64,000 nt of DNA from Myxococcales bacterium (GTDB lineage Bacteria > Myxococcota > Myxococcia > Myxococcales > Anaeromyxobacteraceae): positions 13,363 through 77,362 of the forward strand of contig JAKAEO010000002.1 of assembly GCA_021818285.1 (NCBI GenBank). The letters are read 5' to 3'. Position numbers and translations under genes: made by a program. The notes under the pieces were generated by a model, which saw only the letters and a program-made list of their open reading frames with translations, had not been told where the DNA came from and did not search any database. Shown piece by piece: positions 43,112 to 45,597 of this stretch (positions are counted from its first letter, which is position 1; each line of letters starts with the position of its first letter).

Positions 43112-44203
43112 CTAGGCCAACGCGCCCCGCCCGCCGATCCGGACCGGGACCCGGCGCCGCCCGAAGTCGCCGGGGGCGTCGTCGAAGCGCCCGGCGACCG
43201 TGGCGCCGCAGGCCAGGCAGCGGCCGCCCGGGCCCAGGCGCCAGTCGAGGATCTCGTACCAGTCGCGCGCCACCACCACCTCCCCGCAGCCGGGGCAGCG
43301 GGTGGCGTCGCCCTCGGGATCGTGGACGTTGCCGGTGTAGACGTGGCGCAGCCCCGCCGCCAGCGCCTGCCGGCGGGCCCGGGAGAGCGTGGCCCTCGGC
43401 GTGGCCGGCACGTCCAGCATCTTGTAGGCGGGGTGGAAGGCGGAGAAGTGCAGCGGCACGTCGGGGCCGAGCCGCTCGGCCACCCAGGCGGAGAGCCGCG
43501 CCACCTCCTCCTCCGAGTCGTTCTGCCCGGGGATGAGCAGGGTGGTGATCTCCAGCCACGTCCCGGTCTCCTTCGCGAGCCACTCCAGCGTGTCCAGCAC
43601 CGGCTGGAGCCGGGCGAAGCAGAGCCGCCGGTAGAAGTCCTCGGTGAAGGCCTTCAGGTCCACGTTGGCGGCGTCCATGGCCGCGAAGAGCTCGCGGCGC
43701 GGCTCCGGGTGGACGTAGCCGGCGGTGACCGCCACCGTCTTCAGCCCGCGGGCCCGGCAGGCCGCGGCCACGTCGATGGCGTACTCGGCGAAGATCACCG
43801 GGTCGTTGTAGGTGAAGGCCACGCTGCGGCAGCCCAGCGCCACCGCCTCGTCGGCGATCGCCTCGGGCCCGGCCTCGTCGGCGAGCCGGTCGTCCGCGGT
43901 GGCCTTGGAGATGTCCCAGTTCTGGCAGAAGCGGCAGCCCAGGTTGCACCCGGCGGTGCCGAAGGAGAGCACGCTGGAGCCCGGGTAGAAGTGGTGGAGC
44001 GGCTTCTTCTCGATGGGGTCCACGCAGAAGCCGCTGGAGCGGCCCCAGGTGGTGAGGACCAGCTCGCCGCCCAGCCGCCGGCGGACGAAGCAGAAGCCGC
44101 GCTGCCCGTCGGCCAGGCGGCAGTCGCGCGGGCAGAGGTCGCACTGCAGCTTGCCGTCGTCCCGGAGGTGCCACCAGCGGGCCGGGTGGGGGGCGACGGT
44201 CAC
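43112..44203 (-). CDS. AmmeMemoRadiSam system radical SAM enzyme
   Basis: A GTG start overlaps the upstream stop and follows a GGGAGGAGG RBS. The CNLGCRFCQNW (CxxxCxxC) radical SAM motif is present, along with a C-terminal CPGCGEVVV...CLACG cysteine cluster. Confidence 0.85.
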   Translation of the reverse strand: MTVAPHPARWWHLRDDGKLQCDLCPRDCRLADGQRGFCFVRRRLGGELVLTTWGRSSGFCVDPIEKKPLHHFYPGSSVLSFGTAGCNLGCRFCQNWDISKATADDRLADEAGPEAIADEAVALGCRSVAFTYNDPVIFAEYAIDVAAACRARGLKTVAVTAGYVHPEPRRELFAAMDAANVDLKAFTEDFYRRLCFARLQPVLDTLEWLAKETGTWLEITTLLIPGQNDSEEEVARLSAWVAERLGPDVPLHFSAFHPAYKMLDVPATPRATLSRARRQALAAGLRHVYTGNVHDPEGDATRCPGCGEVVVARDWYEILDWRLGPGGRCLACGATVAGRFDDAPGDFGRRRVPVRIGGRGALA

Positions 44204-45597
44204 GGCGCCTCCTCCCGGTAGCGATCGGCGGTGAAGCGGTAGAGCCGCGTGCCCGGCAGCCAGCCCGGCGGCAGCCCGGCCTTGGCGCGCAGCCGGGCCA
44301 GGAACTGGCGCGGGTCGGGGAGCTGCTCCCACATCGACGGGATGAAGACGCCGCGGCGCCCGGCCGCCTGGAGCACCAGGCCGTCCACCCCCGGCCGCAG
44401 CGACCGGAGCGCCTCCTCCTCGCCGTCGGCGGGCAGCGGCTCGAGGGGGGAGAGCACGCTCACCTCGATCTCCAGCCCGGGCAGCTCCTCCGGCCGGACC
44501 GGCGGGAAGCGCGGGTCCTCGGCGGCGGCGGAGGCGGCGCTGCGGACGATCTCCTCGAAGAGGGTGCCGCGGGGCTCCAGCGAGCCGACGCAGCCGCGCA
44601 GCGCCCCGTCCCGGTGCAGGCTCACGAAGCAGCTGCGCCGCTCCTCGAGCCAGGGCTCGCCGGGCGGGAGCGCCGGGGGCCGTCCCCCGGCCCGGGCCGC
44701 GGCCAGCGCCTCCCGGGCGACGCCCACGGCGACGCCGGCCCGCCGCCGCTCCTCGGGCTCCCCCAGGCGCCGGACCGCGACCTCGGGCTCGTGCACCGCG
44801 AAGGCGCCGTAGCCCACCACCGCGTGCCGGTCGCCCCCGGTGTCGCCCGAGCTGCGCAGGTCGAGCTGCTCCAGGACCAGGGAGCGGCGGCGCGCCACCA
44901 CCAGCAGCCCCTGCAGGCCGCAGCGCCCGCAGGCCTGCTCGAACTCCAGCCCCTCGGCGTCGAGCGCCAGGATCTGCCGGGCGGTGCGCCGGTCCAGGGC
45001 CCGCCCCTCCTCGTAGGAGAGGTAGTGGGAGAGGTCGGTGGAGATCACCACCAGCGTCTCGGGGCCGCCCCAGAGCGCCTCCAGCACCTCGGCGACGTCG
45101 GCCGGGGAGGCCCGCCCCACCGCCAGCGGCACCAGGGTGAAGCGGCCCAGCACCTCCTGCAGGAAGGGCAGCTGCACCTCCAGCGAGTGCTCCAGCCCGT
45201 GCGCGGCGGCGCTGCGCGTGACTTGCGGGAAGCCCGCCGCCCGGCGGGCCCCCGCCTCCTCCACCGGGACCTCGCCGAGCGGCGTCTGGAACCGCGCCGC
45301 CTCGGGGAGCGCCAGGCCCGCCACCGGGACGTGGTGGGCCGGGCCGGCCATCACCACGCGCTCCACGGCCGGGCCGGGCGCGCGCAGCTGGGCGTAGGCG
45401 GTGGCGGCCACCGGCCCGGAGTAGACGTAGCCGGCGTGGGGGACGACCAGCCCCTTGGGGCGCCGGGCTCCCGGGGGCGGCGCCGCGGCGAGCAGGCGGG
45501 CCACCTCGCCGCGCAGCGCCTCCGGGGTCCGCGGGTAGAAGGTCCCGGCCACGGCCGGCGGCCGCACCGTCGCGGCGCTGGTGGCGCGGGCGGCCAC
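44200..45597 (-). CDS. Fusion of MEMO1-family protein (AmmeMemoRadiSam protein B) with a C-terminal AMMECR1 domain (protein A)
   Basis: The N-terminal half is AGTFYPRTPEALRGEV...VPHAGYVYSG...ISTDLSHY (MEMO1). The C-terminal half is ...CFVSLHRDGALRGCVGSLEPRGTLF...GVFIPSMWEQ (AMMECR1). 465 aa. Confidence 0.8.
   Translation of the reverse strand: MAARATSAATVRPPAVAGTFYPRTPEALRGEVARLLAAAPPPGARRPKGLVVPHAGYVYSGPVAATAYAQLRAPGPAVERVVMAGPAHHVPVAGLALPEAARFQTPLGEVPVEEAGARRAAGFPQVTRSAAAHGLEHSLEVQLPFLQEVLGRFTLVPLAVGRASPADVAEVLEALWGGPETLVVISTDLSHYLSYEEGRALDRRTARQILALDAEGLEFEQACGRCGLQGLLVVARRRSLVLEQLDLRSSGDTGGDRHAVVGYGAFAVHEPEVAVRRLGEPEERRRAGVAVGVAREALAAARAGGRPPALPPGEPWLEERRSCFVSLHRDGALRGCVGSLEPRGTLFEEIVRSAASAAAEDPRFPPVRPEELPGLEIEVSVLSPLEPLPADGEEEALRSLRPGVDGLVLQAAGRRGVFIPSMWEQLPDPRQFLARLRAKAGLPPGWLPGTRLYRFTADRYREEAP

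Follow-up and report, generated by a model that had tools for sequence, protein, structure and literature searches.

A canonical AmmeMemoRadiSam module with fused Memo and AMMECR1 components in an Anaeromyxobacteraceae-like metagenome-assembled genome

The AmmeMemoRadiSam system brings together Memo and AMMECR1, two proteins that are linked to human disease and whose conservation extends from archaea to humans, with a radical S-adenosylmethionine (SAM) enzyme. Its three components are described by the models TIGR04335 (protein A, AMMECR1), TIGR04336 (protein B, Memo) and TIGR04337 (the radical SAM enzyme, here rS), the PGAP symbols being amrA, amrB and amrS respectively. Here we analyse a stretch of 64,000 nucleotides (the window; positions 13,363 to 77,362 of contig JAKAEO010000002.1, assembly GCA_021818285.1, Myxococcales bacterium), whose minus strand carries three closely packed genes at 43112–46116, encoding a CBS-pair protein, a fusion of Memo with AMMECR1 (B-A) and rS. 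A Memo–AMMECR1 fusion has been reported before, and the RGChG and DxR(aromatic) (DxRa) motifs of AMMECR1 were then proposed as its active site (Balaji & Aravind, 2007; PMC2034487).

The locus, which lies in a metagenome-assembled genome (MAG) of Anaeromyxobacteraceae-like type, is a canonical AmmeMemoRadiSam module. It differs from the described system in nothing essential: all three components score far above the cut-offs of their models, the genes lie side by side in the same direction with the catalytic motifs preserved, and the window is peculiar only in the CBS-pair gene ahead of the module and a foreign island behind it. Thermithiobacillus tepidarius DSM 3134 (L090) has the same order of B, A and rS with overlapping stops and starts, but there B is one protein of 270 aa and A another of 194 aa, whereas the window has no stop codon at that junction. 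Human MEMO1 (3bcz; 7kq8, iron-bound; 7l5c, copper-bound) shares the Memo fold with template modelling (TM) scores of 0.79–0.80, and H54, H88, D188 and H191 of the window protein align with it, although identity to the window Memo domain is only ∼ 23–24%; it is a stand-alone protein and is not known to have a radical SAM partner. The archaeal proteins PH0010 (1vaj), MM0484 (1zq7) and ST0229 (1wsc) have the AMMECR1 fold (TM 0.81 to 1vaj) and the motifs LRGC(I/V)G and DPRFP, but are stand-alone proteins of ∼ 200 aa, whereas in the window the domain makes up the C-terminal half of a fused protein. The pyruvate formate-lyase activating enzyme (PFL-AE, 3c8f) has 20% identity to rS, which differs from it in having extra N- and C-terminal four-Cys modules. 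Overall, the locus is very probably best explained by a canonical module, a fusion created by stop loss and a joint chemistry of B-A and rS, taken together; the chemistry by itself is a tentative proposal and is weighed below.

The fusion protein and its radical SAM partner

Profile searches bear out the three-component assignment made in the first-pass annotation of this DNA. The fusion matches Pfam Memo over aa 13–265 (148.5 bits) and AMMECR1 over aa 292–459 (147.6 bits), as well as AmmeMemoSam_B (TIGR04336, aa 12–268, 246 bits with the cut-off at 26) and AmmeMemoSam_A (TIGR04335, aa 291–460, 171.4 bits with the cut-off at 99). For rS, AmmeMemoSam_rS (TIGR04337) gives 606.9 bits (cut-off 220) over all 349 of 349 model positions, and PF04055 gives 70.9 bits; together with a CX3CX2C motif the latter places the protein in the radical SAM superfamily. 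The folds agree: Foldseek matched the two halves of the fusion to MEMO1 3bcz (TM 0.80) and Pyrococcus PH0010 1vaj (TM 0.81), and the search returned no solved structure of fused or complexed Memo and AMMECR1.

The candidate metal ligands of the Memo domain are H54 and H88, present in 65 of 65 fused homologues, and D188, H191 and C223, each present in 64 of the 65. H54, H88, D188 and H191 align with the PHAGY, GPSHH and SSDFCHW segments of human MEMO1; the printed alignment ends at aa 192, and we take C223 to be the counterpart of MEMO1 C244. The domain has the fold and the metal-site residues of the Memo / class III extradiol dioxygenase-like fold, and it is predicted to bind metal. The AMMECR1 domain, which was aligned with PH0010 and MM0484, carries LRGCVG (aa 333–338, including C336) and DPRF (aa 361–364, including D361, R363 and F364), both invariant in 65 sequences. 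AlphaFold2, run with 65 homologues, predicts two confident domains with a mean predicted local distance difference test (pLDDT) of 93.7 and a predicted TM score (pTM) of 0.68; pLDDT falls below 50 at aa 274–279 in the linker, and the stretch aligned to aa 266–292, which contains the linker, differs in length between homologues (17–50 residues).

In the longest open reading frame (ORF) of rS, the TIGR04337 match sets in only at residue 51. The true start is therefore GTG 44203–44201, giving a protein of 363 aa; an exact database match (P0194) has this length too, and nearly all homologues fall within 351–385 aa. All 64 rS sequences from the surveyed loci and all 49 database homologues contain the cluster motif C86/C90/C93. 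Cys21, Cys24, Cys28 and Cys38 are invariant in both sets and form a candidate auxiliary Fe-S or Zn site. Four further cysteines (C303/C306/C329/C332; 63 of 64 and 49 of 49) make up a putative zinc-ribbon-like module, which lies beyond aa 243, where the sequence alignment to PFL-AE (aa 74–243) stops; 207 of the 363 residues can be aligned structurally with that enzyme. We found no solved structure from the rS family. Identity to sampled homologues is 69–84% for rS and 48–91%, mostly 50–67%, for the fusion, so that rS is clearly the more conserved of the two proteins.

The junction between the fusion and rS reads GGGAGGAGGcgccGTGAcc, with four bases common to the GTG start and the TGA stop. This is the GTGA overlap behind a strong ribosome-binding site that the first-pass annotation had described, and both elements can be read directly in the sequence (Table 1). 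The DNA has 70–80% GC and long chance ORFs, spurious ones of > 1000 aa among them, occur in every frame; ORF length alone is therefore no proof of coding. The coding status of the system genes rests instead on the scores of the hidden Markov models (HMMs) and on the GC content at third codon positions (GC3), which is 0.99–1.00 in the fusion and rS frames and 0.99 throughout the fusion ORF.

As the CBS gene ends only 9 nt ahead of the fusion, the three genes are probably co-transcribed with the CBS gene first, and the divergent intergenic region of 196 nt at 46054–46249 is the probable origin of a single transcript. A promoter and terminator scan of 41200–46500 gave 0 promoter-like sites and 1 terminator-like site at chance level, a result that is uninformative in GC-rich DNA. 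Within the window no Rfam family reached its gathering score and no tRNA was found, nor does a SAM riboswitch precede the operon. PADLOC, which searches for defence systems, gave no match for any of the four proteins submitted.

Table 1. Positions (window numbering) of the module, its sub-features and the adjoining island.
Feature	Position	Strand	Basis or remark
CBS-pair protein gene	45607–46053	−	148 aa in public assemblies; longest ORF extends to 46116
amrB-amrA fusion gene, 465 aa, GTG start, TGA stop	44200–45597	−	TIGR04336 and TIGR04335; Pfam Memo and AMMECR1
Memo / protein B domain, aa 12–268	44794–45564	−	HMM span
Inter-domain linker, aa 269–286, HEPEVAVRRLGEPEERRR	44740–44793	−	pLDDT, length variation among homologues, junctions of split loci
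AMMECR1 / protein A domain, aa 291–460	44218–44727	−	HMM span
Shine-Dalgarno-like GGAGGAGG for the rS gene, within the last codons of the fusion	44208–44215	−	read from sequence
GTGA: rS GTG (44203–44201) overlapping fusion TGA (44202–44200)	44200–44203	−	read from sequence
amrS, AmmeMemoRadiSam radical SAM enzyme, 363 aa	43112–44203	−	TIGR04337
N-terminal four-Cys module of rS, C21-x2-C24-x3-C28-x9-C38	44090–44143	−	invariant Cys
Radical SAM cluster motif of rS, C86-x3-C90-x2-C93 (CNLGCRFC)	43925–43948	−	conservation
C-terminal module of rS, C303-x2-C306...C329-x2-C332	43208–43297	−	conservation
Foreign island (context, outside the system)	41250–43002		GC, GC3; contains a secreted Ig-domain gene at 41566–42597 (−)

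Prevalence and origin of the fusion

Relatives were surveyed with one genome per species and the fused protein as query, which biases the sample towards fusions; 581 related stretches were obtained and 80 loci kept. B and A form one continuous ORF in 69 of the 80, which come from Myxococcota, Beta-, Gamma- and Alphaproteobacteria, Nitrospirae, Planctomycetota, Spirochaetales and Bifidobacterium. The rS gene lies directly downstream in 53 of the 69 fused loci and divergently upstream in 12; over all loci, it adjoins B-A in 66 of 80, and in the window the two are encoded together with a 4-nt overlap. In 37 of the 52 fused loci that are co-directional, stop and start overlap, 24 of the 52 showing the 4-nt ATGA/GTGA type, which is thus the modal arrangement; gene calls in L083, L085, L086 and L088 have it as well.

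Database matches give the same picture. The best 120 of 7,979 all have both Pfam domains, and the annotation of the Joint Genome Institute (JGI) already uses the name 'protein B/protein A' for many fused matches. When the AMMECR1 half alone was compared with a library of representatives at 50% identity, 5,974 clusters were found at E ≤ 1e-10; by a hand count, ∼ 34 of the best 150 have at least 150 residues preceding the domain, and the eight of these that were scanned all carry Memo in front (8/8). One single cluster representative (P0408, 319 aa) has AMMECR1 fused to a cupin domain.

The first-pass annotation had suggested a survey of how frequent the fusion is; that survey finds it not to be distinctive but the majority state among the sampled relatives, one already named by JGI and reported in 2007. 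The fusion with its overlapping genes is therefore a common and already described form, and the locus is of a known kind. Fusion, gene order and overlap are standard architecture in hundreds of genomes, and this locus does not make the question of function any more testable. A study by Burroughs et al. from 2019 (J Biol Chem) is cited elsewhere as describing Memo–AMMECR1 systems.

Sampling by rS, which is independent of the fusion state, gave four different arrangements. Anaeromyxobacter sp. has fused B-A with a 4-nt overlap to rS, Thermithiobacillus tepidarius has three overlapping genes, Pyxidicoccus trucidator has Memo 3 kb from rS and no adjacent AMMECR1, and Hyalangium minutum has the radical SAM gene alone.

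The split loci point to how the fusion arises. B and A are separate in 9 of the 80 loci, and there the stop of B and the start of A lie a few bases apart at the position of the linker (TAGctcATG, TGAatcATG, TGAATG, ATGATG). A is in frame with B in six of these nine (L010, L021, L034, L036, L067, L068), with stop and ATG 0–9 nt apart; some of the junctions come from short MAG contigs, where sequencing error may contribute. As B and A are packed stop-to-start at the linker, often in the same frame, losing one stop is enough to make the fusion. Split loci lie nested among relatives with the fusion: Thiobacillus L067 is split and L009, L020 and L072 are fused, the L067 Memo domain being 81% identical to those of L072 and L009. 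Such comparison shows that the fusion has repeatedly been gained or lost. Fusion and fission by single stop-codon changes report tight gene packing more than a special constraint in this organism.

The same packing raises the question of whether the fusion in the window is an artefact of sequencing or assembly, in which a stop was removed or the frame shifted between two genes, since in unfused relatives stop and start are so close that one base error could mimic a fusion. The independent assemblies answer it. Contigs from three separate assemblies of the same organism (L081, L083 and L084; GCA_027417755.1, GCA_027447225.1 and ENA ERZ27237554) are 99.9% identical to the window. L083 (ENA ERZ27237554, 99.97% identical) has calls for the 148-aa CBS protein, the 465-aa fusion and the 363-aa rS, the last two overlapping by 4 nt, and in L081 and L084, where the contig end cuts the fusion, its 3' part is followed by the same 363-aa rS gene. 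With 69 of 80 species loci and all of the best 120 of 7,979 protein matches fused, and with GC3 at 0.99 across the ORF, we regard the likelihood of an artefact as negligible. The single 465-aa ORF proposed in the first-pass annotation is thus continuous and reproduced, and a sequencing error does not account for it.

A tentative chemistry for B-A and rS

What suggests that the three proteins act together is gene linkage, together with the existence of B-A and A-rS fusions. The latter is represented by P0323 (558 aa; TIGR04335 181 bits, TIGR04337 538.5 bits), a single cluster representative. With numerous B-A fusions and this one A-rS fusion, AMMECR1 is found beside both of its partners, which is consistent with an assembly of B, A and rS as in the gene order. 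That both kinds of fusion exist, and that the B-A fusion is made and unmade by single stop changes, are mildly useful by-products of the analysis.

We speculate on the following mechanism. The rS enzyme would bind a [4Fe-4S] cluster on C86/C90/C93 and cleave SAM to the 5'-deoxyadenosyl radical, which would remove a hydrogen from a substrate that the B-A protein holds or receives. The AMMECR1 cleft, with the invariant Cys336 of RGChG and with D361/R363/F364, would bind this substrate and might pass the radical on or form an adduct through its thiol. A nucleotide or RNA-base substrate has been proposed for AMMECR1 (PMC2034487), and a substrate of this type seems the most plausible here. The redox or ring chemistry that goes with this would fall to the His/His/Asp/His/Cys metal site of Memo. 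The fusion would set B and A at 1:1, and the overlapping stop and start would couple synthesis of rS to that of the fusion. That a B-A/rS complex acts on a small or nucleotide-type substrate, with a chemistry started by a radical and assisted by metal and thiol, is a tentative reading, which we consider possible but on balance rather doubtful.

Several points weigh against this reading. The literature searched yielded six passing mentions of the system by name but no functional study of AmmeMemoRadiSam or amrS, nor one of AMMECR1 since 2019. All-against-all clustering of ORFs from ∼ −6 kb to +8.5 kb of the Memo start in 81 loci revealed, as conserved extra neighbours, only a lineage-specific synteny in Burkholderiales, and the neighbourhood therefore gives no hint at the substrate; we read this synteny as ribBA-ribH-nusB-thiL-pgpA-cinA and rplS-trmD-rimM. 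The genes are dispersed in some Myxococcota, so tight coupling is not obligatory. The pTM of 0.68 and the disordered linker mean that no fixed Memo–AMMECR1 interface is predicted. The first-pass argument from fusion to physical complex consequently stands in part: it is reasonable, given that B-A and A-rS fusions exist, but AlphaFold2 lends it no fixed interface. Memo and AMMECR1 are retained in eukaryotes, which are not known to have this radical SAM enzyme, and rS may therefore not be central to the chemistry that the two share. Finally, the rS core is closest to PFL-AE, a protein-directed activase, and this fits equally well an alternative in which rS is a maturase.

According to that alternative, the main rival, rS would be a maturase or activase that modifies the fusion itself, much as glycyl-radical activases modify the enzymes they serve, by a radical, a crosslink or another change at or near the invariant G335-C336-x-G338 loop of the AMMECR1 domain, and the fusion would be the working enzyme. 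Several details speak against it. The score of rS is far under every activase cut-off (58 versus 231.75), and the residues aligned with the activase peptide-binding stretch VDGPGIR read HFYPGSS. The modifying enzyme would, moreover, be more conserved than its supposed substrate (69–84% versus 48–91%, mostly 50–67%, in comparable samples), and eukaryotic Memo and AMMECR1 are not known to need such an enzyme. We consider a maturase role unlikely.

The activase scores also bear on a different possibility, namely that rS is an ordinary activase for an unlinked glycyl-radical enzyme and that its siting by Memo-AMMECR1 is coincidental. Many of its homologues are indeed annotated 'pyruvate formate lyase activating enzyme' by JGI. 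However, rS scores 606.9 bits with TIGR04337 but 58.3 bits with the PFLA model TIGR02493 (cut-off 231.75) and 47.8 bits with TIGR02494 (cut-off 174.35), and it does not belong to the glycyl-radical activases. DGxGxR, the substrate-loop motif that precedes the cluster motif in activases, is not conserved in rS, as the alignment of HFYPGSS with VDGPGIR illustrates. No glycyl-radical enzyme is linked to rS in the window, and none is among the conserved neighbours in the clustering of 81 loci. Given also that rS adjoins B-A in 66 of 80 loci and has extra invariant Cys modules without counterpart in PFL-AE, such a role is highly improbable. We prefer, with the reservations given above, the proposal of a joint B-A/rS chemistry.

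The CBS-pair gene and the surrounding DNA

The CBS-pair gene is, as first annotated, directly upstream of the fusion and on the same strand. It encodes two tandem PF00571 repeats (69 bits over 2 stretches), which identify it as a CBS pair, and its GC3 of ∼ 0.97 marks it as native DNA. Its stop codon, TAG 45609–45607, lies 9 nt ahead of the fusion GTG, and L083 has it as a 148-aa call starting at 46053. No CBS gene stands next to the system in any of the 80 loci (0/80); only 3 loci have any CBS match, all at least 1.5 kb off. Nor is there one upstream of the system in four close relatives (0/4; relatives at 70–78% identity, and Anaeromyxobacter sp.). The gene is lineage-specific and no conserved part of the system, and its candidacy as a conserved component is rejected.

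It might still be a fourth component restricted to this lineage, a sensor of an adenosyl ligand (SAM, 5'-deoxyadenosine, AMP or ATP) that regulates the B-A/rS complex. The gene is co-directional with the fusion, close to it and native in composition, and each repeat has a G-h-h-T-x-x-D stretch (GVVTDFD and GALTLAD), which is typical of adenosyl-binding CBS pairs. Against these features stand its absence beside the system in the 80 loci and in the four close relatives and the lack of any CBS-Memo architecture among the best database matches to the fusion, and we judge a sensor role improbable. A composite scheme, in which rS is a maturase that puts a radical or covalent modification on Gly335-Cys336-x-Gly338, B-A is a self-contained metallo-radical enzyme activated after translation and, in this lineage, the CBS protein gates it by sensing SAM or 5'-deoxyadenosine, is similarly improbable; if true, it would provide a first biochemical handle on AMMECR1 and Memo, two human disease-linked proteins.

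At 45595–45609 the TAG of the CBS gene is in frame with the GTG of the fusion, with three codons between them (TAG gcg agg gcc GTG). Were this stop read through or lost, a CBS-Memo-AMMECR1 protein would result; the shared frame has a one-in-three probability by chance.

Downstream of rS, GC drops to 0.62–0.67 over ∼ 41250–43000, in agreement with the lower-GC insert noted in the first-pass annotation. The gene at 41566–42597 (−) encodes a secreted Ig-domain protein of 343 aa, the homologues of which have Ig_3/I-set domains, and has a GC3 of 0.73 versus 0.99–1.00 in the flanking genes. A sister assembly, GCA_027417795.1 (L082), is 99.7% identical to the window, but only up to 42783. Past this point it has a further ∼ 1.2 kb of low-GC DNA, in which a 296/382-aa ORF lies, then an 80%-identical copy of window 42781–43002, and unrelated high-GC DNA where the window has the rS gene. 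This divergence (L082 1–1750) reflects structural variation or else a contig that is chimeric. The island is variable and compositionally foreign, it starts ∼ 110 nt past the rS stop, and nothing ties it to the system.

The other neighbours in the window are unrelated to the module: acyl-CoA dehydrogenase and carboxylase genes, a LysR regulator, an SPFH protein, DUF4178 and a spermidine-synthase-like protein. Divergent from the CBS gene, at 46250–48403 (+), lies a gene called in L083 as encoding 717 aa; the protein has no Pfam match at E ≤ 1e-5 and contains a stretch, HEFGHGY...E, that resembles a zinc-metallopeptidase motif. At the far end of the window, positions 1–12000 have a GC content of 0.67–0.70, versus 0.71–0.79 (2-kb windows) from ∼ 16 kb on, the island at 40–44 kb excepted. 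Few ORFs there have a GC3 > 0.9, which suggests another compositionally atypical region.

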